A DNA stretch of 56,782 bases, the filler included, from Circinaria calcarea (taxonomy: Eukaryota): assembly GCA_051942165.1 (NCBI GenBank). It is 5 parts of 5 records of this genome, joined end to end, with 100 filler letters (N's around TTAATTAATTAA, not from the genome) between each part and the next. Parts side by side here need not be neighbours in the genome. Positions count along the whole stretch, not along the records: positions 22,778 to 34,047 come from JAVECS010000695.1; 4 more parts are not named here. The stretch is one strand, 5' to 3'. Position numbers and translations under genes: made by a program. The notes beneath the pieces were generated by a model. The model saw only the letters and a list, made by a program, of their open reading frames with translations. It searched no databases and was not told the DNA's origin. Of the stretch, positions 6,684-45,515 are shown one piece after another. The number at the start of each line of letters is the position of its first letter. Position 1 is the first letter of the stretch.

Positions 6684-8134
6684 CTAGTGATACCCTCCGG
6701 GATTATCAAAGATCTGCTGAGGGGAATAACGTTGGTGGGAAGAGTGCCCCTCAGGAATACTACCGTATGTACCTGTGCGAGTGTCTTAGCCTTCTAAATT
6801 GAGATTGACGTCGGCTTAGAACGGAATATACCTTGCTGCCTTCCCACTTTCAATCCTGCACTCATTCCATACCCACTAACGCCAGTTTTACTGGAGCTAT
6901 TCCCATTGAGACCACCAAGTGGACGCCTTTGGGCGGGTGTCTGGGTTTGCGAGGTTCCCGTTGCAAGTGCACCTAGGCTACGAACTCCACTGGTACCCTG
7001 CTGAGTAATGGTTTGCGTTGGCTGTCCAAGTCGTGTACGGTGCAAGGATGGTGTCATGTTCACCTCATGATCTAAGCCGCTTTCCGTAAGCATCAGCCTA
7101 GGCGTGTCAGAAATTGTACTTACGGGAGCCAGGTGCGTGGGCGCTATAGCCTTGCGCTGGACGCTGGATCGGCGGTGGCATCAACCGCCCACTGCCTACG
7201 CTGCCATTACTTCCATCCCTTTGGCGGTTATGTTCCTCGGGGTTGCCGTCCAGAGCAAAGTGCCCTGATGTAGCTTGGCCTCGATTTACAGGCCGTAAAT
7301 GAGTGCCGTAAGACGGACGGTTGTTACCTACATGAGCTTGATTCCCAGTTACTGACTGCAGCACTTCGTCGACCGTGTCATATGCAGCTGATTGGGTGAT
7401 AGCGGTCATCTCCTTCCTCCTTACTTTATCGTATAGTTCTTGGGTCTGTTGATGTTTTCGGGCTTTCTCACGGTAAGCAGCGGCGAGGTTCGCGTTCTCT
7501 GTTTTCAGTTTGTCTTGGTCGATTTGCATAGCTATAGGACCGTCAGCTGGGCGCATTCAAGGTTCCTGAGTGAGACTGCAGACTGGTCAACCTCTGATTT
7601 AGATTATCGATCTCAGCATTAGCATCATGGATGATCTTATCCATCTGCATGCTCAGTTTTGCGTATTTATCCGTCCAGGTTCTGGCAAGATACTCCTGAT
7701 AAACGCTAACTTGGGTCAGCCGAAGCCAAAGTGCAGATACCAAATTTCCCTGCACATTTCTTGCGTTGATTGGTAACTCCAAAAGGCCAAACCTCTACCT
7801 GCACATTCCATGATGGCGGTCGGACTTAAGCCACTGAGAACACTAGTTTTGTAGTCCTCGCTGGGATTAAGCTGAGTTGACACAGCATCGTCGGGGTTGG
7901 CAAGGACGGTTTGGCATGCGGGACAGACTCGTTGTCCGCCAGTTGGGTTCGAGAGGCCGAGATCATTCGAACAGGGAATGCAGAAGATGTGGCTTTGGGG
8001 AATCCCTTAGCGATGTGATCCGAGAAGAGGTTCGCTGGCTCTTCTCTCGTCTCTTACCTGCATGTGGTCACAACTGCCCTCTCTGTCAGCGGCACACGGC
8101 ATTTGAGAGAATTACAGCGTAGAGAGAAGTCCAT
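6684..8134 (-). CDS. HEI10: Meiotic RING E3 ligase HEI10/CCNB1IP1 homolog, multi-exon
   Basis: Spliced N-terminus MDFSLRCNSLKCR...AVVTTCS|HIFCIPC...CPACQT...LNPSEDYKTSVLSGLSP, then a coiled coil (DKIIHDANAEI...YREKARKHQQTQELYDK). Intron 1 is 8057-7993 (GTAAGA...AAG). The later exon boundaries and the stop are approximate. Confidence 0.85.
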
Positions 8135-8789: not shown

Positions 8790-10107
8790 ATGGCTGTTTC
8801 TAATCAATCCTCGACCGTACCTTCGCGGACATCCACCCCCAACCCAATCTCGACGCCCAACTCCCGCTTCACCTCGCAAGCCTCTACGGCCGAGGACCTG
8901 CTAAAATCTCAGACGGTAGGCTTAGTCCACCTCTCCGACTTTCGCAAACGCCGCGCCGAGGCTCTCGAACAGAAAGAACGCGAAGCACATAACCGGAGCC
9001 TTGGGCGCTTCACCCCAGCCAGCGGATCTGGAGCTGTGACTCCGAGCGACGGGTAGGTAATCGGTGGGAGGAATTGAAAGAGAAGCCAGGGCTAACGGTC
9101 AAAGCACAGTGCCTCGACACCGCAACGGCCGTCGAAGAAGCAGCGGAAGAATGTCGCAAAGGGGAAGTTGTCCTTTGGGGTAGATGGCGAGGAGGAAAGC
9201 GATGTGACGGACTCGAAAGCGCCCACGCCCAGGTCGGATTCCCCAGCCAATGGCGCGACGGAGAAAGCAGCCCCCACGCCGGACGACGGTGACATTCCTC
9301 CAAAAAGACGTCTTGGGCCGAATACAAATGTCACCATCACCCCCAAAGCCATGACGAAATCCGCTCTGCTCAGGGAAGCGCAGACGCGGGAGCAACTGCG
9401 CAAGGAATTCCTATCGCTCCAAGAAGCCGTCAAGGCTACGGAGATTCTGATACCCTTCGTCTTCTACGACGGGACCAACATACCGGGCGGGGTCTGTAAG
9501 GTCAAGAAAGGAGACTACATATGGGTGTTCCTCGACCGCAGTCGAAAGCTTGGGGCAGAACTCGGGGTCGGCGCAAGCGGAGAGAAAGCCAACAGCAAAC
9601 GAGAATGGGCAAGAGTTGGTGTCGATGACTTGATGCTCGTGAGAGGCGAGGTCATTATACCGCATGTGAGTAAATCACGCTCACGGGAGCATTGCTCCGG
9701 CTAACCTTTTTCGGTACCAGCACTACGAATTCTACTACTTCATCGTCAACAAAACCCTCGGCCCCAACTCCGCCCCTTTGTTCCCTTACACCGCCCAGCC
9801 TCCCAGCCTCCCCTCTCGCTCCAACACCTCATCCCCATCACCCGATCTCGTAAACTACAATCCTCTCTCCCGTCCCTCCCAGAGTTCCGTGTCCAAAAAA
9901 TCAAATAACTTTTCGGCGAATTCCTCTGATCTCGGCCTCGAAGGCTACAGCGACGACCCGAACTTGACGAAAGTGGTGGACAGGCGATGGTACGAGCGGA
10001 ATAAACACATCTTTCCCGCGAGCGTGTGGGAGGAGTTTGATCCGGCGAAGGATTATTCCAAGGGAATGAGAAGGGATGCGGAGGGCAATGCATTTTTCTT
10101 CTCGTAG
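8790..10107 (+). CDS. XAP5: FAM50/XAP5 family nuclear protein, 3 exons
   Basis: Motifs EDLLKSQTVGLVHLSDFRKRR, IPFVFYDGT, DDLMLVRGEVIIPH|HYEFYYF, TKVVDRRWYERNKHIFPASVWEEFDP. Introns at ~9053-9108 and 9666-9720. Confidence 0.9.
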
Positions 10108-11294: not shown

Positions 11295-11394
11295 NNNNNN
11301 NNNNNNNNNNNNNNNNNNNNNNNNNNNNNNNNNNNNNNTTAATTAATTAANNNNNNNNNNNNNNNNNNNNNNNNNNNNNNNNNNNNNNNNNNNN
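11295..11394. other. Artificial scaffold spacer (N44-TTAATTAATTAA-N44)
   Basis: 100-nt N run with a central all-frame stop linker, identical to the other three spacers. Confidence 0.97.
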
Positions 11395-17143: not shown

Positions 17144-18051
17144 ATGTCTGAAAAAGCCCGAGAAGCTATTGAGCAGGTTGATGTTACGGCCAACAACAAC
17201 GCTGCCGGCACGGGGCCTCCGGCTTACAGTCTCCATGAATACGATCAAGTCTATACTGCCAATGATGTCGCCTTATCGCAAGAGTCGCACCTATCCTCAC
17301 TTGGTGTTCCACTCGATGAAATCGCATCAACTTCAAACTCGGGAAGGTCACCGGTACCGTTGGCCGAACCTTTATCCCTGACCATGGACGAAGAACTGAT
17401 ATACCCTACCTTGCCACCATCGAGTGCATTGTACTATATTCCCCAGCGTCTCACCTGGACGGGGTTTCAGATCTCTTTGCAGAGATCCTTACCTGGGAGA
17501 AAGAAACGAGACGGCACAATCGTACCTACGGACGACCAGGATCTGTATCAGATTAACTCGCCACCTTTTTTAACAACAGTTGAGCTGGTCCCAAAACGAG
17601 CCAGCTGCTTCGGTAAAGGAAAAGCAACCATGACGAGATCAAGTATATTCAGCGACCGCTGGGAGGTATCCTTTCACAGGGAGGTTGCCATAAAATTCAA
17701 GAAAGGGCAGTGGACGGATGCTCAAGGCAAAGCCCTCGCAACCGAGGAGAAGATTGAGAACAGTAGAGATGAGACTGGGTACAAGCAACGGCGGACGATG
17801 ACAATCGAGGCTGGAGTGGACCCAAAGATGATGAATCTCTTGGTAGCATGCTGGACGGCAAAAGTGTGGCGGGAAGTCCAGGTTGCTCTGACCAAAGACC
17901 AAACAAGCAACAAGTTCAAGGAGGTGATCAAGACAGGAAGTAAGCTTTAGATAAAATGGGGTGACCTTTACTACCTACGCTGACGCTGTGATATTTAGAG
18001 ATGACTACAGTTGACAGCGTGGAAGGAAAACCCAGATTCAACTCGAGATAA
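17144..18051 (+). CDS. Hypothetical protein, 2 exons
   Basis: ORF from ATG 17144 with a PPAY motif near the N-terminus. Intron 17940-17998 (GTAAGC...GCTGAC...TAG) gives a short final exon ending at TAA 18051. Confidence 0.7.
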
Positions 18052-22677: not shown

Positions 22678-22777
22678 NNNNNNNNNNNNNNNNNNNNNNN
22701 NNNNNNNNNNNNNNNNNNNNNTTAATTAATTAANNNNNNNNNNNNNNNNNNNNNNNNNNNNNNNNNNNNNNNNNNNN
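22678..22777. other. Artificial scaffold spacer
   Basis: N44-TTAATTAATTAA-N44. Confidence 0.97.
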
Positions 22778-23245
22778 GCTCGGCATGGAAAATGTGAGAA
22801 GAGGGACGAAGGGGGAGGGAAGCGGGTCCCTGGTTAGGCAGTGAACTTTTGTGTGACATGGGTGGAACAGGTATAAATGGTAAAGGGGGGAGAGACACCC
22901 GGTTTGAGGGAATCTTCAGACGACTCCTTGGAAGGGGGGGCCTTCTCAATTAGTACACACAATCTACGTAAGCGGTGGAGACGTAACAACCGGTACCGAT
23001 TACATGGGTCTAAGTTCTTTTAAAAAGTAGATTATAAGAATACAGGGGCCCTGCGTGGTAAATAGAGTAAATCTATCGAAGTTTTTTCTTCTTCTTCCCA
23101 TATCCAAATCCCAATTTTTATCGAGCGGACGATTTTAATAGTGTCGTAGCGAATAACTAGAGTGTTAGAGTTGAGGTATTTTAGTCTTTGTTTTTTTATA
23201 TTTTGAGATTATTATTGTTATATAAACATATATTCATATATAACA

Positions 23246-23420
23246 TCCGGTATGGTCTAGGGGTTAGGATATTTCGCTCTCAGGTTAGTGTTGCCCCTCT
23301 GTCGATTCATTAATTCCTTCGACTCCCAGGGAAAAACATTCAAGCTAACAACCATAATCAAGTTACCAATCATAGTAATAGCGGGCCGAAGAGGCCCGGG
23401 TTCGATTCCCGGTACCGGAA
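23246..23420 (+). tRNA. tRNA-Glu(CTC) with 103-nt intron (23283-23385)
   Basis: Acceptor stem TCCGGTA/TACCGGA, A-box TGGTCTAGGGG, anticodon stem TTTCG/CGAAG with loop CT-CTC-A^C, T-arm CCGGG-TTCGATT-CCCGG. The intron follows position 37. Confidence 0.92.
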
Positions 23421-23430
23421 AGAAATTTCG

Positions 23431-23438
23431 TTTTTTTT
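23431..23438 (+). terminator. RNA polymerase III terminator of tRNA-Glu
   Basis: T8 run about 10 nt after the tRNA 3' end. Confidence 0.75.
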
Positions 23439-26400
23439 CCTATGATTTTTAAATTACAAATCAAATTAAGGCTCCTTTCCCCACCCCGCGTAGGAAAAAT
23501 ACTCCACAGTATTTAATTTTCAAAAAAGCACGGGAAAGGGTAGTTTTCTTATTTATTATATTTCTAAATATTATATCGCGGGGGTCCCCCGGACCTTTTT
23601 ATTAAGCTGTTGCTTTGACGGACAGAGAACCGTGCGTTGTTTGAATACAAGGTTGGAATTGATTAGCCTAGGCTAGCCCGGATTGGAGGTGGGGTGACAC
23701 GGTTTTGACCGCCAGAGCAACACCTTAAGGTATATTATATTGATAGTTGTAAGATAGCCGTAATATGAACCATTTTATCTCCATTATATAATAATGATTT
23801 TATTATATCGGCAGAACCTATTAACAACTCTATTTAAATATTAACGCTGGGTTAGTACCTCTGTTGTTAAACAGGCACGACTTTCGGTTCTTGCCATACC
23901 AGGCAGCAATAGTATTGAGACACAGAAAAGAGTTATTTGGCTGAGCGTTGCTTGGCCTTGTCTTGCAAGATTTGGGTGTACTAGTAGTAGCCCTCCTTCC
24001 AGGGTGCCCAATTCGGCGAATTATGTCAGCGTGTTGGAAAGGCATGCCGAAGGAGCCATGTTTGACGCTCCGAACCGTAGCCGGTTGGAACTCTCCAATA
24101 AGCCCATTGTTCTCTTGGATAGCGCTTGTGGAGATGCTGGCTGAGGAGCCAATCTTGACGGAGGCTGGACCTGCTTCGCCTGGCCATAACCAGTCACGGT
24201 GCAGCTGGGAGGAGCTCTTGGTGTTGACTGTTGTACCTTGACATGGTCAAAGCCCGGCTGACCAAGCCGTATATCTTGTGAGCGGCGAGGCAGGAGACTG
24301 GCGTTTGAATCCAGCCAAGAACCGTATATATGATCTCGGCGGCGACCACTTTCCTAGATGCGGACGTCGAGAACGACTCGACGGAATTTCAGAAGTCCAG
24401 CTTGGTGCTGCTGTTCTCATCGCAGAGGGAACTGCCGGCGGCAGTTCGGAGCTCGCAGATGGGAAATTGACTTGAATATCAATGCCGCCTTGATTGTTAC
24501 CGAACACGGAAGCAGTCTCGAAAGCCTCCAGCTAATATCGAGACGGAAAGGAGACGCGGGCTGGAACTTCTCGACCATGGTATTGGACCGCGAGACTCCA
24601 AAATATGGTTCTTAGTTTAATTCGAATATAAGTGGCGTATATACCTGATTACCCCGTTCCATTCTTTAGGAACTCTGGCAGCCTTATCTTGTACTCATGC
24701 CGGACAATTGCCAAAGAAAATGTCAAGATAATAGGCACTATCGTGCTCTATTATAGGCGATTGATCTTGCGATATTGAGCGGTCGACTTGATCCGATAGG
24801 GAGTCCTTCAAGATATTCCACCTCCCCAATCCTACCCCGTCTCCTATCTTCCGTCTCTTCACCTGGCCACACTCACTCAGGGCCCCAGTTGCAGGCCCGC
24901 TGAGCCTGGGAGCCTTGATCTCTCCAACCTTCTGCCCCCTACCCGAGAATATATCCTCTTGCCCGTTCTTCACGGTCCCATACGGTATCTTCTCTCTCCT
25001 TCTCTTCTCTTCATCCTCCCGCTCCCTCTTCCTCACCAACTCTTCCATTTCCCTATTTTCCTTACCTCCTTGGGGACACGCACTGGAGCAGGTTTAGGCT
25101 TGAACTTTAGGGTTGGGGGAGCCATTCTTATGGAAATCGACCGTATTTGCTGTAAATGAGTCTATCCACCTGTGTATCTCGTTGTATAGAAAATGGAGGG
25201 AAGATAGTAGTCTCACAGTACCTGGACAGTAGAAAGAACTCGGAAAAGAGTGAAACCAAACCCACAGTCCCATTCACCACACGAATATGGCTATGTCCCA
25301 CGTCACTCAGGGTGAAAATGGCAGTCGCTCTGGACATTCCCAGGAATTCGGTGTTGCCATTGGCTCCCGATAAGCTTGGCGTATTAGTTGCCCCGCTAAG
25401 TCTTACCATTCCGAGAGAATCTTTACTACCCATACCAATTGACTGAAACCTCGACAATGATAATGAGCGTAGCATGCGGCTAGTATGACCGAAGCTGCGA
25501 GGATCCTTATAGAGACAAAGCTGATGTGTATTGGACAAGCATTGGTGGAGAACCGCTGTTACGAGTAGCGACTGCTGCGAACCAATTTATGGTGTTGGGC
25601 GAATTTGGCGGTCAGGATAAATGTTATAAAGCAATGAAAGAAGTAAGTATCATATATAGTATATCTCTTGCTGTCTTTCATATTGTATAAAGTCGTTGTG
25701 CCAACACGTATGCACGTGCAAAAATACAGGTCTCCGGAAATTTAGAAACGGGGTGAATATTAGCTTCATCATCCTCTGAGGGAATTCTTGTTGGAGAGCA
25801 TCGGGCGGGGAAGGAGCTTTAACAGTTTGATTTGAAACAGAAACTACAATATACACCCCTCCATATTACTCCTCCTTTTTCTAGGAATTTATACAGCCGC
25901 CTTTGCTGAGGATATCAGGATTAGTGTCGAAAAACGCGTTGACCCTGCGACCACAGAGTAATTAAGCCCACTCCGTGCCTATACTCATTCAAGAAAGCCG
26001 CTGGTTTGGGTGGCCTAGGTATCTCTATTCGCAATTTCAAGTACCCATACAACCGGAACGCCTCAATTATTTGAGATTCTTGCCTGTCCAATATTCATTT
26101 TCCCCCCTACCACCCCCATCTCCCCTTGCAGTAAATGTTAGAATCGGTTCCATTTTCGCCAGGAGGATGGCATTACATGCCAGATGGATCGTCGCGAGTC
26201 CCGGCAATCTCCACTGCGTTAAATTGCATGGCGATAAGGAGGTACAGATGCGGGGGCTCTCTTTGCATAATTTCCGATTAGGTACATGGGCTATCATTTG
26301 ATAAGGAGTGTCGTAGCACGGGTTGAACACATGTCAGCCATGCAACTCCTCTTCCTTGACGTCAGGTCGGCTCCAATCTGCTGGGCTCTGTCTAGAGTAT

Positions 26401-28539
26401 CGTCGACGAGAAACCGTCATTTCTCATCCATGGCACACCATCCAAAAGTCCTCACTCTGCGAAAGTATCTGCACGACCATACTTGCTTGACTACAGAGCT
26501 GTCTTTTAGCTGCTGTACCAGTCCAGAGGAGCCACCTGAACGGCCATCACATTTGAACGTTCATCGGTTGGGGCCTTTTGCATGCATTATCCTTATCGGT
26601 AGTAGTGATACGTGATACCAGTGTACCTTTGTTCTTGAATCTCACCGACCTTGGTGCGACTTGATGGCTGACTTGGTACATGGGAGACACGTCCCTTACT
26701 AATGTGACGGCATTCAAGGGATGACTACCAGTAAATATCTAGGTGGTAGGATTCTGGAATCAACTGCTAGATCTTGGGAGCCGGCAACGAGTAATGCTTT
26801 TTGCTGGAGATTTCTTTTCATCCTGCCGCTTCGATTCCCGTGTTTTCTCGAGCGCCCTGTACAAGTCGTTTGCTAGGAGGGCGCTAACCGATGCGACTCT
26901 GTCTTACTGTATCATCAACCGAAGTGTTCGACTCGACGGACGATTAGGCAATCCAGCGGTTGTTTACTGTGGGCACCACGATTTAGACAAACATTTACTC
27001 GTTATTGTAAACTACAGAGAATTTCCAAAATTAGATAGCAGACTGTTTTGCACAGAGCGACTATCAAGTGGTTCCACATTATCTCAAGTGCCATGTCCGT
27101 TGAGAAACTGGCCTGTCAGACTTTTCCCCAATATAGCTTAACGGGAGTATTGGTGGATGCTCTAATTATACCAATAGAGTTCAATGATCGTCGTTGATGA
27201 ACTTGATAGGGATATCGAGCAGCCTTGATCTCCGAAATCTGTTGGATCTGGACGGGTCTCGGAGCATTCATACCGCAGCGAGCCGATGCAAAAGTCATTC
27301 TCTAGCGCGCTTCCTAACTTAAAGCTCACTGCCGCTCGAGTCATGACTTGGCAGATGTCCGATGCGTTTTGCCCATGCACCAAACAGGCTGATGCCTCAC
27401 TAGTGACAGCCTAGCGCACCACAAGGTTCTGCACTTTGCCCCAAAAGACGGCCCATGTCCGCCCGATATCTCCCAGGTCCATGGATAGGAGTCGTCTTCT
27501 GCTGCTATGACCAGTCCAAGGATATCGCTTTTTCCCATGCAAACTTTTATGACAACGATGAGCCAAAATCTGCCGACTTCCTCGGCATCAGCAACGTGTA
27601 TGCAGTTGCTCCGTACAAAGCTCCAAGCGAAGTGCATCGCAGGTAACTCTACTCACTCCGTACTGCATACGTGCTGTGCACCCCATCATCACCTTGGCGG
27701 CCCGATTGCTTTGGTCCTCCCCTCCTCCTCCGTATTCGGGATTCCGTATTCCGTAGAATTGTGGCGCTTCAGTCCACGTTCTTCGCGTATCGCTTTGAGG
27801 CAAGCAAGGTCAATGAGAGCGAGATTTCATTTCCGCCATCAATCACAAAGACTGCGTAGGACCGGGGTCGCTTTCCAAGTTCCAGCACACGGCAAGGCTG
27901 TTTGACTCCCACCCCCCCTGACTAGCCATCTCCTGAACCGTCCAGAATGGAAGGATGGTGATGAGGGGTCTCGATCTTGGTATGGTCATCCAACCGAATC
28001 CAGCATGCTCTCGGCCGCTAGATCTGAAGGGCCCCTGTTTCGGGAGCAAAGTGTAAAATAGTGAGGACCGAAAGATATCTAGTTCAATGATTGGCCTATC
28101 CTCTTTCGAGCAGCCTACCCACGGAACCTGGACCGGCAATCCATCCAGTGGGAATTTCAGCTCGCCACACAGGAGGTTCCGGCTGGGGACCCTGCGCGTA
28201 CTGAGCACTGATGGGCCGTACTAGCAGGAACCGGGCTTATGAAGTCGGCCGCCCGCCTTTCTTACTCGCTTTCTCTCTCTTTGTCTTTCGTTTGGTACTG
28301 TATCATCCCGCCTGCGCTCGAGCCCGGCTTCTACGGGTGTCGTCCTTCGTTCTCTCTGGTATTCGCTGAACATCGTACCATATGTAATTGGGTCTGTCCG
28401 CACTTTTTCTACATCATTCGCTTACCGAACTATTTTTAATTCCGACTGGCCCTCATTCGCTTGGGCTTGACCTGAAGGTTCATTTCGAGAATACATTCAA
28501 GAATACACTGGGCGTGTGTGCTCCGACTCTACCGCCATC

Positions 28540-31326
28540 ATGAAAGGCTTCAAATCGTATTTCCATCCGGCGGACAAGAAGAAAGCTGCCTCCGCTGCAG
28601 CTTCCAGTGTGGAAATGACCAACTCGCCTCATTCCCCAGTAACGCCATCGTTTTCAGGAGCCGCGACGCCAGCCTACTCGGGATCTCGACCCGCCTCCTT
28701 GTATCCCTCTGGGGATTTCAGAAACTCTACCATGGACGACATAATGGAGATCAAGGCCGATGTCATGGTTAACTGGCTACACCAGCAGCAATTGGAACGT
28801 ATGTGGACCAACGGTGGTGTTGGCGAGGGTGTTGTCCTCAAGAAGGGGCGTGACGCCTACACGGCGTGTCCAGGAGAGCTTTCCAATCACCGAGGCGACC
28901 TCTTCGACGCAGTAACTAGACTTAATGTCAGGGTATGTGGTGCTCATCTCGGGATTGCGGTCTCCTTATCGGACTAATGTACGAGTACAGACTGCCATGA
29001 CGGTTAACACTCGTGTCATCAAACTCTTCCTGCGGCGTCAGGACCTTCCGTACGTTCCGCTAAAGGACGGTCTGCGCATTCAGATTCTACCTAACATCAC
29101 CTTTCTCCCCACATGTCAGAAGCATCACTTCGCAGCTTTCATCAAGGACACCTCAATTCTCGTGGTGTGGGACGATGAACCCAAACACCTGTTATCCCGC
29201 GCACAAAAAATCGAAGAACAGTTGATGTCTATGATCTGGGATAGCGGCTCCGAATTCGATGAGAAGACGAACAAAAGCCAAAGCGTGCTCATAACAGAAG
29301 TTCCCCAAGAAGGACCAGATGGCGAGATTGTTTACGAGGAACTCATCACCGAAAAACCACGGAAACTGGTGCTGATCCAGGCTACCATAACCGCTCTCAC
29401 ATTGATCATCTTAGTAGCTGCTATTGGCGCCGGTTGGCGGAATATTGTTATCGAAATCGCAGTTGACAAGTCCATGATGCGGCTAGTTTTCGCCGCTGTG
29501 GTACCCCTCCAAATGTGGCTTGCTCTGGTATGTTTAGCATGCTCTCTCTCCTTTGGAAATATTTATGAGCTAATTCGATTCTCTAGTTTTTCATGCAGTC
29601 AGTTATTGGTTGCCTGGCTCAAATGATTGGGCCAATCAGTCAGATCAATGAAAACTCGAAATTCTATTCTGGCGTAGCCCCAGTTCGTATTTCAAAAGGT
29701 GACCTTCCACACGTCACCATCCAATGTCCGGTCTACAAGGAGGGTCTCTACTCTGTCATCGAACCGACTATTCGATCTTTGAAATCCGCCATATCCACAT
29801 ATGAGATGCAAGGTGGCTCTGCAAACATCTTCGTCAACGATGATGGGATGCAGATAATATCTAATGAAGACGCCCAGGCCAGGAGGGACTTTTATGACGA
29901 GCATAACATCGGCTGGGTTGCACGACCAAAGCACAACCCGAAGCCAGCCGAAGGCGAGAGAGGATTCATCCGCCCTGGGAAATTCAAGAAGGCTTCGAAT
30001 ATGAATTACGCTATGGCTGTCAGCGCAAGAGTTGAAGATAAGCTTGCAAACATTGAACGGCCCACCACATGGACTCACGACGATGAAATGGACGCCTATT
30101 ACAGCTCGTTGCAGCAGGTTGTCGCTGAAGACGAAGGCGTCACTTGGGCAGAAGGCAATATTCGGATCGGGGACTACATTCTCATCGTGGATTCAGATAC
30201 TCGTGTTCCGGAAGATTGCTTCCTAGACGCCGTTAGCGAAATGGAACACTCTCCTCAGGTTGCTATTATTCAATTCACCGCCGGTGTCCTGAACGTTACT
30301 ACTAGTTTCTTCGAGAACGGTATCACTTTCTTCACAAATCTTATTTATACAGCCATCACCTTTGCTGTTGCCAATGGCGATGTTGCTCCCTTTGTCGGTC
30401 ACAACGCTCTTCTACGATGGTCTGCTATGCAAGACATTGCATACAACGATGAGGTAGATGGAACTGAGAAATATTGGTCCGAGAAAACAGTGTCAGAAGA
30501 CTTCGATATGGCACTAAGGCTTCAAAGCGTCGGCTACATTGTTCGCCTAGCTGCATATACCGGCCAAGGCTTCAAAGAGGGTGTTTCCCTTACCGTGTAC
30601 GATGAACTTGCTCGTTGGGAGAAGTATGCCTATGGCTGCAACGAACTCATCTTTCACCCTCTCCGATATTGGTTCGTCCGAGGCCCCTTCACTCCACTGT
30701 TCAAGAATTTCATCAAATCTAGAATGCCCCTGCCATCTAAGCTTACCATCATGGCCTACATCGGAACTTATTACGCTATTGGGTCTGCCTGGCTATTGAC
30801 CTTGATGAATTACTGTGTCGTTGGATGGTTCAATGGATGGCTAGATAAATACTACATCGACTCCTTCAAAATTTTCTTTTCGATCATCATTGTTTTTACG
30901 GCAATCGGTAACCTTGCCCTCGCAATCTTACGGTATCGACTCGGCGAGCAAAGCCTGTTAGCCGCGCTGTGGGGAAACTTCAAATGGGTTTTCCTCCTCG
31001 CCATTTTCCTTGGTGGTATTTCTCTCCACGTCAGCCAAGCTCTTCTCTCCCACATGTTCTCCATTGATATGAGTTGGGGTGCCACTGCCAAGGAAGTCGA
31101 CAACACCACCTTCTTCCAGGAAATACCTAAGTTATTGAAGAAGTTCAAGTTTATGTTCCTGTGGACCATCGTCACTACCGCTGGTATCATCGTACTCGCC
31201 ACCATCGCCCCTCCTTTATGGCGCATCACCACCTTCCAAGCCATCTTCCCGTTGGCGATATGTGTGTTCTCGCACTTCGCGTTACCGATCGCACTGAATC
31301 CCGGGCTGATGCTGTTCACATTTTAA
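28540..31326 (+). CDS. Multi-pass membrane glycosyltransferase family 2 (processive, cellulose-synthase-like fold), 3 exons
   Basis: Motifs IQCPVYKE, VNDDG, KKASNMN, VDSDT, FVGHNA, VSEDF and ELARW, with several hydrophobic TM segments. Introns 28933-28990 and 29528-29586 join the three ORFs in frame. Confidence 0.9.
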
Positions 31327-33141
31327 GATGTGCTGGGTGATTTTGCAGTAGCGGCCTCATTACTAAGGAGGCGCAATAATAGATGGGAACTTGGGAGGAG
31401 TGTGCAGCGGATTTTTGGCGTTCTAAGCATGAGCGGAGCGGTTAATGATTTCGATATACCAAGTGAAGTTACGGAGTCGATCGAGATGTACAGTGGTCTA
31501 GGGCGCCTCAAGGCTTGGATACTTTCCCCACATATAGACGTCTAATTCTATGATTAACATTGACTGGAATATCCGTGTCCTTGCTTTTCTCAGTGTCCTC
31601 GCATTCGGATTTGTTAGATTGTTCTCGGGTCTGGTCCGACCGACCCTGTTCAGATTGCATGCAGAATGGCGAGCGTAGCTGTAAGGAAGGCCATAGTGTG
31701 TACATGGAACCTGCACTGTTTTACCCACCTGGTCCAATTTGAATCCTTGGCCTCGTCGTACCATGCCTCACATATATGATAAGCCATGGTACTTTCCTAC
31801 ATCTATTCCCAGTTCCCGTGGTTCAAAGTTGCGGGGACCTGAACACCATGAGGCGATCACATGGCTTATCCAATTAGGGTTTGCTTAAGACCTCGTAGCG
31901 TAGGTATAAACCCCCCCCCTCTCCCTTGTCTCTCCGAATGGCCCGCCTTCTATTGTGTCTGTTCTTTCCGTTGAGGAATTTTTAGATATCCAAGATGGAA
32001 TTGCAGCTGTCGTGGCAGGTTGGCTGCACGCTGTATTAGGCATTGGAGGAGAAGAGATCTGCTGTGCTCCGTAGTGGGATTGTCGAGGAGCGATCTTCCT
32101 GCGAATGGGGATGGGGGACTGGAGGAGAGGGTCTACATTTAGATGATGCTTATGAGCTGCATTTCACTAGGATCCTGCTTGGGATATTCGATCTCCAATT
32201 CGTTTGTGTGTGCGTAGTCCGTACTCGATCTGACAGTTGTCCGGCAAGGTACCGATCGGACTCTTTCGAGGCTGAGGGGTAACGGAGTGGAGGTTGCCAC
32301 CAAAACACAGATGCGTTATTTCATCGGAGTTCTACGACTTGAAGACATTGGCATGGTGCTGTGAAGAGCCAAGTCCACTCACGATGCACTCCATATATAG
32401 CTACTTCCTATTAGTAGTGGCTTCTATACTGTGATGTATTGGTAGCGACTCCTACTCCTACACTCCATCCCGCCGGCCGTTGCAGTGTCAATTTGGAATA
32501 GCGGCCAGCCATTCAGATAGCAACAAGTGCTACTGCGGAGGGCCTCCGGGCCCTTGCAGGTGACAGTTCATTTGTCGCCCTTCATCGGATACCGAAACAC
32601 TACGTATGCTGCAGAGTACCTCCGTCCGCGTTGTAATTTATGGGTCGAGAGCGTTCGCCCCCGCACCAGGCACTCGTCCCAAGTAGCTCGAGCTATAGCT
32701 GATAGGTCACACATGGCGGCATTGGCGAGCGGAGCTGAAACCTAATCGAGCCGACGGTTGCCATCCAAAAACGCCACATATGCGCTGGCTCTCCAATGAC
32801 TGGGCTCTTGCATCAGTCCGAGATCCTGTTTTTGGCAGAGCCGGCGCCGGCGCTAGGCTCATAGCTAAATTAATTTGCCTTTCGTCATTTCCTTCGGGAT
32901 TTTTTCGTTCGCTCTGCGGTCGCAACTGATTTACGGGGAGAGTCTCCTGCAATTTCGAGATGTGTCAGGTAGCCGATCATCAAACTTGGATTGGTCCTGC
33001 CCGCACGGATTGACCCATCTCCAGTTCTCAAACGATTATTCTTCTCACTTCATCATGTCTCTATGAGAGTTGGCACCATACTATTGCCACCGGCTGTTGG
33101 ATATTTTCGAGTTCATCTCCATTCCCTTGGCTCCCTTTGCC

Positions 33142-34047
33142 ATGGCGTCGTTACGCGCCGGTTCTTTCGAGGAGCCAACACCACTTCTACCTGCTGATCA
33201 TCGTTTGTGCACGCAATTTCCTTCGACCGTTCCCTCTCTCTCATCATCCGAAGCGCTTCCGAAAAACCGAAGAACGTCGGTATTCACGGAGCTCGACACA
33301 AGTAGCTACATGGAGGATGACACGACGACACGACTGCCACGTACAGCGAGGTCAGGGAAACAGGTTCGTTTTCGCAACCGACTAGACGTACAAGAGGCAC
33401 CCGACTCTGGTAGAAGCGGTTCATCCGCCGTGGAGATAGCAAACATCTCAATGGCTCGGAAACCTCTGCATTCAGCCCTTGTATCAACGACTTCATCCGT
33501 ATCGCAGCGGCAAAGTCTACTTTCGTCTATCCCTCGACTCTACTACTTTACGCTATTTTTTGCAATCTTCTTACCTCTGCTACACAATTCGCCTTTGGTT
33601 GGAAAGGCTGGATACCTAGCGATCGGAGTGGAGGCGTCAGTCGTGCGAACCCCAGTCGCGGAAAGAAGGGTCCTTGATGAAACGAATGTAGAGCTCGTTG
33701 AGAGGGATGATAGCCCTACGGATATCTGCAAACGATGGTCCCATCAAACTGCGATAGTGAATGGGACAATATATATCTATGGAGGGCAGTCGAGCACCGC
33801 CCTGAGGCAAACCAACGACACTTGGAACAACGATTTATCCACGCTCAATTTGACTAAGAAATGGGATATTTCGGCGCCAGCTCTAAAGGCACAGTCGCAG
33901 CCAGCTGGACCTCCTCCAGTTGCTAACGCTTTTCTCTGGAACTCGTTAACTTCCTTGTTTCTTTATGGCGGATTGTACGCTGACAACGAGGACCCATTGC
34001 CCTCGCCTGCGCCTTTTTCTTTATGGGAATACGATATCGCATCATCA
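33142..34047 (+). CDS. Kelch-repeat membrane/cell-surface protein, 5' part (truncated by gap)
   Basis: Hydrophobic segment YYFTLFFAIFLPLL followed by Kelch-like blades (RWSHQTAIVNGTIYIYGG; SLFLYGG; LWEYDI). Confidence 0.75.
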
Positions 34048-34147
34048 NNNNNNNNNNNNNNNNNNNNNNNNNNNNNNNNNNNNNNNNNNNNTTAATTAAT
34101 TAANNNNNNNNNNNNNNNNNNNNNNNNNNNNNNNNNNNNNNNNNNNN
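34048..34147. other. Artificial scaffold spacer
   Basis: N44-TTAATTAATTAA-N44. Different genes lie on either side. Confidence 0.97.
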
Positions 34148-36202: not shown

Positions 36203-39200
36203 ATGCATCGTCCATCATGGTGGCCGAAAAGGGACAAGAAGGTCATCGTGGACGCGGTGGCAGCCTCGACGAATACCTCAACGAATACCTCGCCGGTCAT
36301 ATCGAGTTCGACAACTGGCACAACAACCAAAGCTTCAGAGGTTCGTCGAGAGTAACGACAGATGGCCGGTAAACGCTGACCTATTGTTGTATAGGCCACG
36401 CCCCAGAAAATTGAGCCTCGCGAGAGCTTATGGGACCGGGCATATGAGGATTTACGAAGGGAACAGAAAGATCTTATCGATGCATACGAGAAGCTGCTAG
36501 ATGCTGAGATCAGTACTAAGCCTTCGAATTCTATCAAACTTGGAGATCCTACCGGAAGGGAACACCAGATGTCAAGTTTTGTTGAGGAAAAACTGGCGAT
36601 TATGAACAAGGAGCAATGGAGGTTCCAGGTTGGAGACAAGTCAGTGGAAGTCAGACAGCAAGTGGACCGGATTGTCAAAGTTGTCTTGGTAGCGAAAGAC
36701 TTCATCTCCAGCGTGGCTAGTATGGACCCAATCCATGCTGGACTTCCTTGGGCTGGGGTCTGCATGTTGCTTCCTGTAAGTACCACTGTGTTTACCTCCA
36801 TTGGCATATATAAGCGCTCACGACTGCAGTTGGTCGTGAATGACAGTAAGCAGCGGGCGGAGGCGATTGATGGACTTGAGTACGTCTCCAAGCTTGTTCG
36901 TCGCTGTACTGAGATCGAGCACATCTATCTCCAGGACAGCGATATCATACTGAAAGAAGATCTTGAGGCTGTAATGATAAAACTTTATAGTCAAGTTTTG
37001 GAATATGAAGCGAGAGCTACGTGCCAGTTCACCCGGAATGGAGCTCTTCAGTTTGCGAGGAATCTTGTCGAAGCTGATGGGTGGAAAGGTATCATTGATA
37101 ATGCCAAATCATTAGAGACGGAGTGTGATAGTCTTTTACGCATTATCGATGCAAAAGACCAAAGAGAATGCTTGAAACGACTAGAGCTTCGAATAGATAA
37201 TCAAACGCAAAAAGTCCAGGAGCGTCTTGAAGAGTCTCACATACAGGATCAAGCATTCATTCTAACAGAGCTGAAGGCCAGCAGGGCAGAGCAGGAGCTG
37301 TACCATACAACTTCGGAGGAGTCCGACTGCTATGAATGTCTCCGGACGACGGATTACGAGTCGAACAAAAACAAGAACCCAGACCGTATCCCAGGAACCT
37401 GTGAGTGGTTTTTAGGGCACATGAAATATCGGAATTGGTTGGATGAGCAGGCATCCGCGTGGCTCTGGGTCACTGCAGACCCAGGGTGCGGGAAGTCCGT
37501 TTTGTCCAAGTCCTTGGTCAACAACTTCCAGAATACGAACTCTACAGAAAGAACGAGTGTTTGTTATTACTTCTTCAAGGACGATAGCGACAATAACAGA
37601 AGCGCGTCGCATGCTATGTGCGCAATCCTACATCAGCTTTTCTCGCAAAATCAGGCTCTCATGAAGCACGCCATGCCGGCTTTTCGCCGGAACGGAAAGG
37701 AGCTACCTCAATTATTCGAAACGCTTTGGAATGTACTTATATCGGCTGCGGCAGACCCAGGTGCCGGGACCGTGATATGTATCCTAGACGCTCTTGACGA
37801 ATGTGCAGAGTCAAGTCGACTTCCACTAATCCGGGAACTAGCAAGGTTCTACAAGAATCAAGGACAGACATCCAAGTTGAAGTTCATCTTCACCAGCCGC
37901 CCGTATTCTTCCATAAGTCATGCACTGTGGTGGGAAAATCCGAATGTAAAATCTATTCAGTTGGCCGGTGAGAATGAGAATGAACTGGAGGTTATCCGCA
38001 CTGAGATAGCCTTGGTTATCGAGGTGAAGGTGAAGCGATTTCATGAGCTACGGTGTTCGAAAGGGATCCGTGATGATGCTCATATTGCCATTCGAGCGAA
38101 GCTGGACGAGATCGAGAACCGGACTTACCTTTGGGTGGCGCTTATCTTCCCGGAACTGGAAAGGAATGCCGGGCTGGCCAAGGCTAAGCTACTCCGGACC
38201 ATCCAGGCCATACCCGCTACTGTCAATGAGGCATATGAAGCAATCCTAGCACGAAGCTCGGACGCTGATCAAGCAGAGAAGTTGCTGCATATCGTCGTTG
38301 CAGCCATCAGACCACTTACTCTTGCAGAGATGAACATAGCCTTGTCGATACGAGAGGGGAGCAGCTCAATGGATGAACTTCAACTTGAACTTGTGCCGGA
38401 GTCATCCTTTGAGGAGACGATCCGTGAGCTCTGCGGACTTTTTGTAAGCATCATAGACGAGGAGATCTATCTCATTCATCAGACAGCCAAAGAATTCCTC
38501 GTCGCTGAACGAAATCCAGCTCAGCCTGCGGCCACGGGGAAGGGTATTTCAGAAAGGAAAGAATGGAAGCACTCTTTACATCCTATTGAATCCAATATCA
38601 TACTCGCAAGAATCTGCATTTCCTACCTCCAGCTTGATGTCTTCGGAAGTCATCCTCTAATCACAAGTCAATGTTCTAGCTGCGTGGATTCTATGGATTA
38701 CGAATACTCGAATACTTCGGAAACATCGACCAATGCTGATGAATCAAGTATTTCATCCACATACCAGCCTAACATTCATGTATATATCAACCGCTATCTT
38801 TTGTTAGATTATGCTTCGAATTACTGGGCCCTTCATTACCGCGAAGCTGACATCCGGATTGATATGGCCCTATTCAGATCATCTAGCGCAATTTGCGACA
38901 GTCAATCGCAAACCTTTAAGATATGGTCGGAGATTTACGACGATGAACACTTTACAACAAATGCTTCAGAGGTCATGTTAAGATCACATTTTGGCCATGA
39001 GGGAGCGGTGAAGCTATTGCTTGATCGGGGCGTTGATCCGAACATAAAAACCGGGCGATTCAAAGAGACAGCGCTCGCTTGCGCTGCACGGGCAGGGCAT
39101 GACGTGATTGTCGCGATGCTGCTTGAAAGGGGGGCTGATGTAGATTCTCAAGATGATCACGGTTATACCCCATTGTTTTTCTCCACGGGTGCAAACCAGG

Positions 39201-41323
39201 AGAAGATCACATCACTGCTATTGGAGAACGGAGCCAATCCGAATTTTCAATATTCTAAAGGTAAAACGGCATTGAGGCATGCTGTGGAATATAGATATGA
39301 AGAAATAATAGCGATGCTAGTTGAGAAAGGAGCAAGTTCGAATATTTCAGACTTTGAAGGCAAGACACCATTGATGTGTGCTGCGGGTAAAAGATTTGAG
39401 GGAGCGGAAAAAGCCATGAAATTACTATTAGAAAAAGGAGCCAATCCGAATTCTCAAGATTCTCGAGGTAAAACGGCATTGATGTTGGCAGTGAAAAACG
39501 GAGATAGAAAAGTAGTAGCAATGCTACTTGAAAAAGGAGCAAGTCTAAATATGTCAGACTTCGAAGGCAAGACACTATTAATGTATGCTGCGGGCAGCAG
39601 ATTCGAGGGAACGGTGGGAGTAATAAGATTACTACTGCAGAAAGGAGCTAATCCGAATGCTCAAAATTCCAATGGTGAAACGGCATTGATGCATGCAGCA
39701 GATTGCGAAAATGAAAAAGCAGTAATAATACATGAGTATGGAGCAAGTCGAATATATGTTATAGGTGAAGGATTCGAAGGATTCAGGGAATTTGACAAAT
39801 TCGAGAGAGCGGTGGGAGTGGTGGGATTGCTCCTGGAAAAGGGAGCCAATCTGAACGCTCAAGATTCTAAAGATAGAACGGCATTGATATATGCTGTAAA
39901 ACACGGACCTGAAAAACTGATAACGACACTACTTGAGAAAGGAGCAAGTCTAAATATTTCAGACTTCGAAGGCAAGACACCATTGATGTATGCTATAGGT
40001 AAAATATACTGGGAAGCGGAGGGAGCGGTGCGATTATTACTAGAGAAGGGTGCTGATACGAAAGCTCAAGATCTTGAAGGTAAAACGGCATTGATGTATG
40101 CAGCGAAATATGAACGTGAAGAAATTTTTATAATGCTACTTGAAAAAGGAGCCAACCCGAATACTCAAGATTTTGAAGGTAAAACGGTAATGATGTATGC
40201 AGCGAAATATGGACGTGAAGAAATGGTAGCAATGCTACTTGTAAAAGGGGTCAACGCGAATGCCCAAGATTCCAAGGGCGCAACCCCGTTGTTGCATGCA
40301 GGAGATGGAGAATATAAGAGAATAATGGTATTGCTGCTTGAAAAGGGAACTAGTCCAAACATTTCAGACTTCGAAGGCAGAACACCGTTGATATGTGCTG
40401 CAAACGGAGGGCACGAAGAGGTTGTGAAATTATTACTTGAAAAAGGAGCAAGTCCAAACATTTCAGATTTAGAAGGCAAGACACCATTGATGTGTGCTGC
40501 GAACGAAGGGCACGAAGAGGTTGTGAAATTGCTACTTGAGAATGGAGCAAGTCCAAATATTTCAGACTTCGAAGGCAAAACACCGTTGATATGTGCTGCA
40601 AACGGAGGGCACGAAGAGGTTGTGAAATTACTACTTGAAAAAGGAGTAAGTCCAAACATTTCAGATTTAGAAGGCAAGACACCATTGATGTGTGCTGCGA
40701 ACATGGGGTACAAAGAAGTTGTGGAATTGCTCCTTGAAGAAGGCGCAGAGATTAATGCCGCATTCATGGATGGAATAACCGCGTTTTCGTTGGCAGACAT
40801 GAATGGACATGACACCATTGCAAAGCGATTGCTTGACGAAGGGAGCGATGGGAAATTGATCAATTGGGAAACGCAGACAAACTTACATATGGCGCTGTTC
40901 GATGCGTGGGACCACCAGGTAGAAGAAGGGATTGAAAGAACCGCTAATTTGAATTGCAAGGGTGGTAATGGTTGGACTCCGTTGCATTATGTTGCATTTA
41001 GGGGATGGACGGGGATGATGGAGCTCTTGCTTGACCGCAGCGCTGACCCCGACCTTGAAAACAATGCAGGCGAAACGCCATTACTTTTGGCTGTGCGAAG
41101 TGATGAGGTATACTCCGTGAGATTGCTCGCGCATTACTGTTTACGAAAGAAGGGCGTATGGCTCGATCTCAGTATGATGATAGACCTGGACATGCCAACA
41201 CTCAAGCTCGCTGCTCAAAAGGACGGCCATAACGGGGTCTTGAGGACAATCTATCCAGCGTTTGATTTGGTCGATCAAGACAGTGCTCCCCCAAGTCCTA
41301 GGACTACAGAACCAGGTTCTTAA
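36203..41323 (+). CDS. Fungal NLR: NWD-NACHT N-terminal domain + NACHT NTPase + winged helix + long ankyrin-repeat array
   Basis: Exon 1 is 36203-36340; introns 36341-36394 and 36776-36829. Motifs SLWDRAYEDL, AGLPWAGVCMLLP, Walker A ADPGCGKS, Walker B ICILDALDEC, FIFTSRPY, IHQTAKEFL, then roughly 20 ankyrin repeats (GKTPL/GKTAL...LLLEKGA). Confidence 0.93.
39200..40750 (+). repeat. Tandem 99/108-bp ankyrin-coding repeats with high DNA identity
   Basis: Recurring ATTTCAGACTTCGAAGGCAAGACACCATTGAT and GGTAAAACGGCATTGATG. Near-perfect 198-bp-period duplication at ~40352-40703. Confidence 0.9.
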
Positions 41324-45415: not shown

Positions 45416-45515
45416 NNNNNNNNNNNNNNNNNNNNNNNNNNNNNNNNNNNNNNNNNNNNTTAATTAATTAANNNNNNNNNNNNNNNNNNNNNNNNNNNNN
45501 NNNNNNNNNNNNNNN
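45416..45515. other. Artificial scaffold spacer
   Basis: N44-TTAATTAATTAA-N44. Confidence 0.97.

Follow-up and report, generated by a model that had tools for sequence, protein, structure and literature searches.

The tRNA-Glu(CTC) gene and its setting

The window, that is, the whole 56.8-kb stretch of Circinaria calcarea DNA that was analysed, strings together five contigs, each about 11.27 kb long, with N44-TTAATTAATTAA-N44 linkers between them (Table 1). A tRNA-Glu(CTC) gene lies on the third of these contigs (22778-34047), 469 nt from the contig start; because the five contigs were joined, genes on the other four are not necessarily its neighbours. The gene was matched by Rfam RF00005 over model positions 1-71 of 71 (43.6 bits, E 5.2e-06), and no further Rfam match was found in the 56.8-kb window, either at the gathering threshold or at E<=1. 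ARAGORN run with the intron search called the same gene as tRNA-Glu(ctc), i(37,103), and its default run, in which introns are not searched for, returned 0 genes in the window.

All stems of the tRNA, as read from the sequence, are intact, and the acceptor and T stems are perfect. The A+T-rich, TATA-like stretch directly 5' of the gene is presumably an upstream Pol III promoter element, and the T8 run that begins 11 nt beyond the 3' end is a putative Pol III terminator. The gene looks functional because its body is intact, the intron follows position 37, the C32/G(-3) pair can form, no T run longer than 2 occurs within the intron, and both the T8 run and the TATA-like stretch are present. These features suggest that tRNA-Glu(CTC) is probably an intact, active nuclear gene transcribed by Pol III.

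Table 1. Coordinates of the tRNA-Glu(CTC) gene, its intron and related features in the window.
Feature	Position	Strand	Basis or remark
tRNA-Glu(CTC) gene with intron	23246..23420	+	Rfam RF00005 and ARAGORN -i
A+T-rich TATA-like stretch, directly 5' of tRNA	23220..23245	+	Sequence reading
5' exon, tRNA positions 1-37	23246..23282	+	Rfam, ARAGORN, sequence reading
A-box region	from about 23253	+	tRNA-Glu(CTC)
C32	23277	+	Within 5' exon
Anticodon CTC	23279-23281	+	Within 5' exon
Direct repeat, left copy TCAGGTTA	23280..23287	+	Imperfect, 8 nt, period 78
Intron, 103 nt, canonical 37/38 site	23283..23385	+	ARAGORN -i; sequence reading
Donor-like hexamer GTTAGT, context CAG/GT, after initial intron G	23284..23289	+	7.5 bits, Fusarium-based matrix
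Branch-like GCTAAC, putative branch A at 23348	23344..23349	+	8.3 bits
Direct repeat, right copy TCAAGTTA	23358..23365	+	Matches left copy 7/8
First AG past branch-like motif, AAG/T	23361..23362	+	Acceptor score 0.27 bits
Two further acceptor-like TAGs	23373-23375 and 23379-23381	+	Candidate unit would then be 92 or 98 nt
3' exon, positions 38-73	23386..23420	+	Rfam, ARAGORN, sequence reading
B box	23399-23409	+	tRNA-Glu(CTC)
T8 run, begins 11 nt beyond tRNA 3' end	23431..23438	+	Sequence reading
HEI10-like RING gene, intron 1	7993-8057	-	GTAAGA donor, CTAAG branch-like motif, AAG acceptor
Linkers between contigs	11295-11394, 22678-22777, 34048-34147, 45416-45515

The remainder of the window holds genes whose predicted Pfam content is typical of fungi, namely those for an XAP5 protein, a Myb protein, an EPL1/PHD protein, a NACHT-ankyrin NLR, a mitochondrial carrier, an acetyl-CoA synthetase, a Ras GTPase, a GT2/DUF7928 glycosyltransferase and a Kelch protein. 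For the glycosyltransferase gene (28398-31515, + strand), relatives with about 90% DNA similarity occur among biocrust metagenome and metatranscriptome contigs, and its best named protein relatives, 60-66% identical, are scattered over several ascomycete classes, some being fused to dynamin-type GTPase domains. These protein matches point to an ascomycete-like fungus with no closely related sequenced species in the protein database. The NLR-type gene (36395-41320, + strand), with NACHT_N, NPHP3_N and ankyrin-repeat domains, has an open frame of 1642 aa, ahead of which lies a 54-nt intron (36341-36394) whose donor is GTTCGT. ARAGORN also called a tRNA-Ile(gat) at 17270-17914 on the minus strand, with a 554-nt intron at a non-canonical site; this call has no Rfam match and is probably a false positive.

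A complete set of spliceosome-like signals in a tRNA intron

The first-pass annotation had placed a 103-nt intron at the canonical 37/38 site of the gene, and the ARAGORN result bore this out; in the Rfam alignment, the insert falls in the anticodon loop. The third-last base of the intron is a G (23383) able to pair with C32, in agreement with the earlier reading, and the longest T run within the 103 nt is 2, so that the annotated lack of a T run that would stop Pol III also held. Re-reading of the sequence recovered the annotated donor-like hexamer in its CAG/GT context, the branch-like GCTAAC (its CTAAC core at 23345-23349) and, 13 nt farther on, the first AG. Removal of a candidate nested unit ending at this AG (23284-23362, 79 nt) leaves, as had been claimed, a remainder of 24 nt, which retains the G(-3)/C32 pair and for which RNAfold predicts the small GTTAC/GTAAT stem that the annotation had described. 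The two TAG acceptors that lie 13 and 19 nt downstream of the first AG would define longer units.

The signals were set against the consensus of fungal U2-type introns. The branch motif is of the CTRAY form and is suitably distant from the AG that follows. The first AG, which reads AAG/T, is not a YAG, and the donor GTTAGT departs from GTRNGT by its T at +3; among the likely real introns of the window, the one that precedes the NLR-type gene has a GTT donor as well. The candidate unit is sub-par as a spliceosomal intron, with an AAG/T acceptor, a T at +3, a score of 16.08 bits when the first AG is used, and a length of 79 nt.

Ordinary introns of the window

Likely real introns of the window were screened by pattern matching plus the joining of open reading frames. 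About 12 introns have support from ORF joining, Pfam continuity or the RNA contig of a relative; they measure about 46-114 nt, mostly 50-66 nt, and the 79-nt unit is longer than most of them. The likely real introns have a branch-to-AG spacing of 4-17 nt, a range that includes the 13 nt of the tRNA intron and upholds the annotated likeness to the mRNA introns of the window. Two introns of the glycosyltransferase gene (about 28933-28990 and 29528-29586) were confirmed by a metatranscriptome contig, and both have a GTATGT donor, a CTAAT branch motif and a YAG acceptor.

The annotation had also pointed to an intron ending in AAG in a HEI10-like gene, and such an intron was indeed found on the minus strand (Table 1). 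Its removal joins a RING-type reading (...TTC/SHIFC...), the SHIFC-containing motif being that of HEI10. Because this intron ends in AAG, non-YAG acceptors are used in the genome.

A strict pattern (GT[AGT]AGT, CTAAC, first AG 5-25 nt on, length 45-130) occurs three times on both strands of the window, the tRNA intron included. Another occurrence, in the XAP5 gene (9666-9720), is a real intron across which the Pfam profile continues, and the third begins at the likely real donor in a mitochondrial-carrier gene, with an ambiguous acceptor (44127 or 44084). A relaxed pattern occurs 32 times, and about ten of these occurrences join long open frames.

Chance expectation of the signals

Among 200000 shuffles of the intron, the strict pattern was obtained at a rate of 1.0e-3 anywhere and of 1.25e-4 when the donor had to fall within the first 3 nt; the corresponding rates for the relaxed pattern, again in 200000 shuffles, were 7.2e-3 and 6.5e-4. 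A position-weighted score was also calculated from the splice-site frequencies of 2022 Fusarium introns (the available part of PMC5677156), with the split within CTRAY assumed. In that set, as given in the same part of the source, T at donor +3 is present in 6% of introns and RAG/Y acceptors in 2.18% (PMC5677156), and the score penalises both the +3 T and the AAG/T acceptor of the candidate. Under the model in which the first AG is used, the candidate reached 16.08 bits, a value attained by 2705 of 100000 shuffles and by 87.8% of the model introns. When any AG 5-35 nt past the branch motif was allowed, the TAG acceptors scored best; their 20.2-20.5 bits lie near the model median (20.3), and 238 of 60000 shuffles did as well. 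Of the donor sites in the whole window, 29 have at least 20.2 bits, with the candidate in the tRNA intron ranking 23rd.

The signal set is thus real and uncommon, at about 0.1-3% per intron of such length, which is suggestive. Depending on the model, p is about 0.001-0.03, which speaks only moderately for a non-random origin, and a likelihood ratio of about 5-50 for an intron-like origin, a rough estimate and not a computed value, is likewise suggestive. Since very many windows were scanned, the chance rate cannot carry the claim alone.

Folding and repeats

Neither the intron nor its precursor folds better than shuffled sequence (z -1.3 and -1.6, respectively). A local hairpin is predicted inside the intron at 23301-23323, and the constrained minimum-energy fold, a prediction only, pairs the last three intron G with positions 32-34 and leaves C38 unpaired.

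An imperfect 8-nt direct repeat flanks the candidate unit (Table 1). An 8-nt repeat at 7/8 or better was found at 2.2% of random positions with the same search space, and the repeat was spotted post hoc; none of the nine likely real introns tested in the window has a comparable flanking repeat. As evidence of insertion, the repeat is weak. No second copy of the intron was detected in the 56.8-kb window, where the best other blastn-short match is 12 nt, and no terminal inverted repeat of the unit was seen by eye, the best match of the intron to its own reverse complement being an internal one of 9 nt. Local alignments of the intron to the exons, to the flanks and to its own reverse complement gave scores of 12-18, which is noise level. 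A B-box-like stretch in the intron (23317-23327) matches the T-loop region of the gene itself at 9 of 10 bases, also with a noise-level score.

Comparison with other tRNA-Glu(CTC) genes

Four biocrust metagenome runs were compared with the contig that carries the tRNA gene. Two of the four held small shares (0.10 and 0.07), and their matches came only from relatives with about 90% similarity, at 27.1-31.5 kb and 33-34 kb, where the glycosyltransferase and Kelch genes lie. A single match of 39 nt covers the 3' exon (23382-23420), and the intron at 23283-23381 has no coverage. A search of the metagenomes with a narrow pattern from the D arm to the anticodon yielded four loci from other organisms, of which three are intron-less tRNA-Glu(CTC) genes and one has a 34-nt intron. 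With a wider pattern, 28 loci were found in a prokaryote genome collection, apparently representing eukaryotic DNA in MAG bins, and those called tRNA-Glu(CTC) by ARAGORN are all intron-less. In all, tRNA-Glu(CTC) is intron-less in 31 of these 32 loci, the exception being the 34-nt intron; no orthologue or paralogue of the gene with the 103-nt intron occurs among the 4 metagenome and 28 genome-collection loci, and as none of them is related to it they are silent on conservation. A 14.4-kb contig with some of these loci (L012-L017, L020-L027), in a MAG labelled Rubritalea, carries tRNA-Glu(CTC) and an intron-bearing tRNA-Lys(TTT) in a tandem array whose period is about 1054 bp; it seems to be eukaryotic DNA that was assigned to a bacterial bin.

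The published record consulted here points in the same direction for this isoacceptor. In Aspergillus niger, 12 of 12 tRNA-Glu(CTC) genes are intron-less (available part of the PMC6108506 supplement), and the tRNA introns of this species measure 12-27 nt, with 16 intron-bearing genes among the 37 in Table 1 of that study, as far as its accessible text goes (PMC6108506). The length of the intron described here needs explaining, because fungal tRNA introns longer than 100 nt were unknown according to that same accessible text (PMC6108506); 103 nt does lie inside the 6-133 nt on record for canonical eukaryotic tRNA introns in the portion of PMC4090602 that is available.

Probable removal of the intron as a single piece

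The reading that we favour, with some confidence, is that of a long canonical tRNA intron that leaves as one piece, for which the spliceosome would not be required and whose inner signals would be a coincidence or an inert fossil. In eukaryotes, the tRNA endonuclease finds its cutting sites by their fixed distance from the folded tRNA body, with the anticodon-intron pair as a further cue, and the sequence and length of the intron carry little weight. Because the intact body, the 37/38 site and C32/G(-3) are all present, SEN can remove the whole 103 nt. In the proposed sequence of events, SEN/TSEN would cut both exon-intron borders, measuring from the folded tRNA body and relying on the anticodon-intron pair C32/G(-3); the two halves would then be joined by the fungal tRNA ligase, and the entire 103 nt would be released in one piece. 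A purely spliceosomal removal was considered and rejected, as no GT...AG pair in the intron restores the 7-nt anticodon loop; a SEN-type cut is therefore needed whatever the spliceosome does. We infer that SEN/TSEN is most likely the enzyme acting at this intron.

Since SEN can take out the whole intron, the inner signals are dispensable and are not protected by selection. It follows that, if they do derive from a real intron, either the insertion should be recent or a shorter precursor should be advantageous. More probably than not, the GT/CTAAC/AG signals are a coincidence, or at most the fossil of inserted DNA, and not a working nested intron.

The signals could alternatively have a nested, spliceosomal-type origin, in which an mRNA-type intron of about 79 nt (or 92 or 98 nt) entered a short intron already present in the ancestral tRNA gene, either by reverse splicing and subsequent reverse transcription or through an insertion at the DNA level. 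We regard this origin as possible, although doubtful. The donor, a perfect CTAAC and an AG stand in the right order and at a spacing, 13 nt, that ordinary introns of the window also use, and the combination is rare in shuffles under both the strict pattern (1.0e-3) and the weighted score with any AG (4.0e-3). With a TAG acceptor, the unit scores near the model median, and the strict pattern occurs only three times in the window, once as the real XAP5 intron and once from a likely real donor; the HEI10-like intron shows that an AAG acceptor is used elsewhere in the genome. The 24-nt remainder keeps G(-3)/C32 and falls in the size range of A. niger tRNA introns (12-27 nt, in the accessible text of PMC6108506), the flanking 7/8 repeat (p about 0.022, post hoc) fits an insertion, and there are precedents outside Pol II mRNA in S. 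pombe U6 and in U1/U2/U5 snRNA and rRNA genes, as listed in the available part of PMC5855946. Against this origin, the first AG is poor and the donor has a T at +3, both minority forms in Fusarium (available part of PMC5677156), and with the first AG 2.7% of shuffles score as well. The unit is also longer than most supported introns of the window and has no second copy in the 56.8 kb, and no selection would keep its signals inside an intron that SEN can remove. Moreover, because tRNA-Glu(CTC) is usually intron-less, the nested model needs two separate gains. The first-pass annotation had allowed for two outcomes, the use of both machineries or the action of SEN alone. A two-machinery twintron, whose nested unit the spliceosome would still excise from the Pol III precursor, either ahead of the tRNA endonuclease or competing with it, appears unlikely; here the spliceosome may leave a short remainder for SEN, and either order of removal would give the same mature tRNA.

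Two other explanations concern the gene or the intron as a whole. An inactive or decaying copy, poorly transcribed or left unprocessed while other tRNA-Glu(CTC) copies supply the cell, would be consistent with the intron pushing the A and B boxes about 134 nt apart and with the single tRNA gene visible in the window, which makes other genomic copies possible. Natural A-B box spacings in yeast are much shorter than about 134 nt, and TFIIIC tolerates long ones. With its stems intact, an Rfam score well above threshold, a T8 terminator-like run, a TATA-like leader and no internal T run, such a copy is very improbable. Farthest from what we expect is an intron that hosts another functional RNA, snoRNA-like or regulatory, of which the box C/D RNA in archaeal tRNA-Trp introns is an example; the unusual length and the predicted hairpin at 23301-23323 would suit it, yet the intron contains no Rfam family even at E<=1, its fold z-score is -1.3, and no C/D or H/ACA box motifs were seen on reading the sequence.

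Relation to known systems and implications

Removal in one piece, the reading preferred here, would place the intron among canonical SEN/TSEN tRNA introns, whose flanking halves are joined in fungi by Trl1 ligase and which likewise lie at 37/38, leave the mature domain intact and may form C32/G(-3). It differs from canonical tRNA introns in that tRNA-Glu(CTC) is usually intron-less and in the complete spliceosome-like signal set, and at 103 nt it is much longer than the 12-27 nt seen among filamentous ascomycetes in A. niger (accessible text of PMC6108506).

The nearest likeness to a nested intron is the mRNA-type intron of S. pombe U6, a spliceosomal-type intron that the spliceosome excises from a Pol III transcript and for which an origin by reverse splicing and then reverse transcription has been proposed; further reported hosts of spliceosomal introns are the genes for U1, U2 and U5 snRNA and for rRNA (available part of PMC5855946, citing Tani and Ohshima 1989, 1991 and Bhattacharya et al. 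2000). These U6, U-snRNA and rRNA introns interrupt the mature RNA and must be spliced, as was shown experimentally for S. pombe U6, whereas the tRNA candidate lies inside another intron and is dispensable. Nesting of one intron in another is shared with the known twintrons, which comprise group II/III twintrons, fungal stwintrons, and rDNA group I introns whose homing-endonuclease genes hold spliceosomal introns, the rDNA case bringing two splicing systems together on a transcript not made by Pol II (available parts of PMC9548176 and PMC5587772). True twintrons require a fixed order of removal, and the tRNA-Glu(CTC) candidate does not. In the full-text literature searched, from which subscription journals are largely absent, we found neither a tRNA gene or tRNA intron described as containing a spliceosomal intron nor a tRNA-endonuclease intron paired with a spliceosomal one.

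If the signals are a coincidence, a regex-level GT/CTAAC/AG match overstates significance by one to two orders of magnitude relative to a position-weighted score, and long tRNA introns need comparison with paralogues and RNA before twintrons are claimed. If the nested unit is instead what it resembles, it would bring together, in a new combination, two unrelated splicing systems on a single small Pol III transcript, and would be a snapshot of the spread of mRNA-type introns into non-coding RNAs. It would imply that reverse-spliced or inserted mRNA-type introns can colonise pre-tRNAs, even at selectively neutral sites, and would offer a ready explanation for the rare, very long tRNA introns of fungi.
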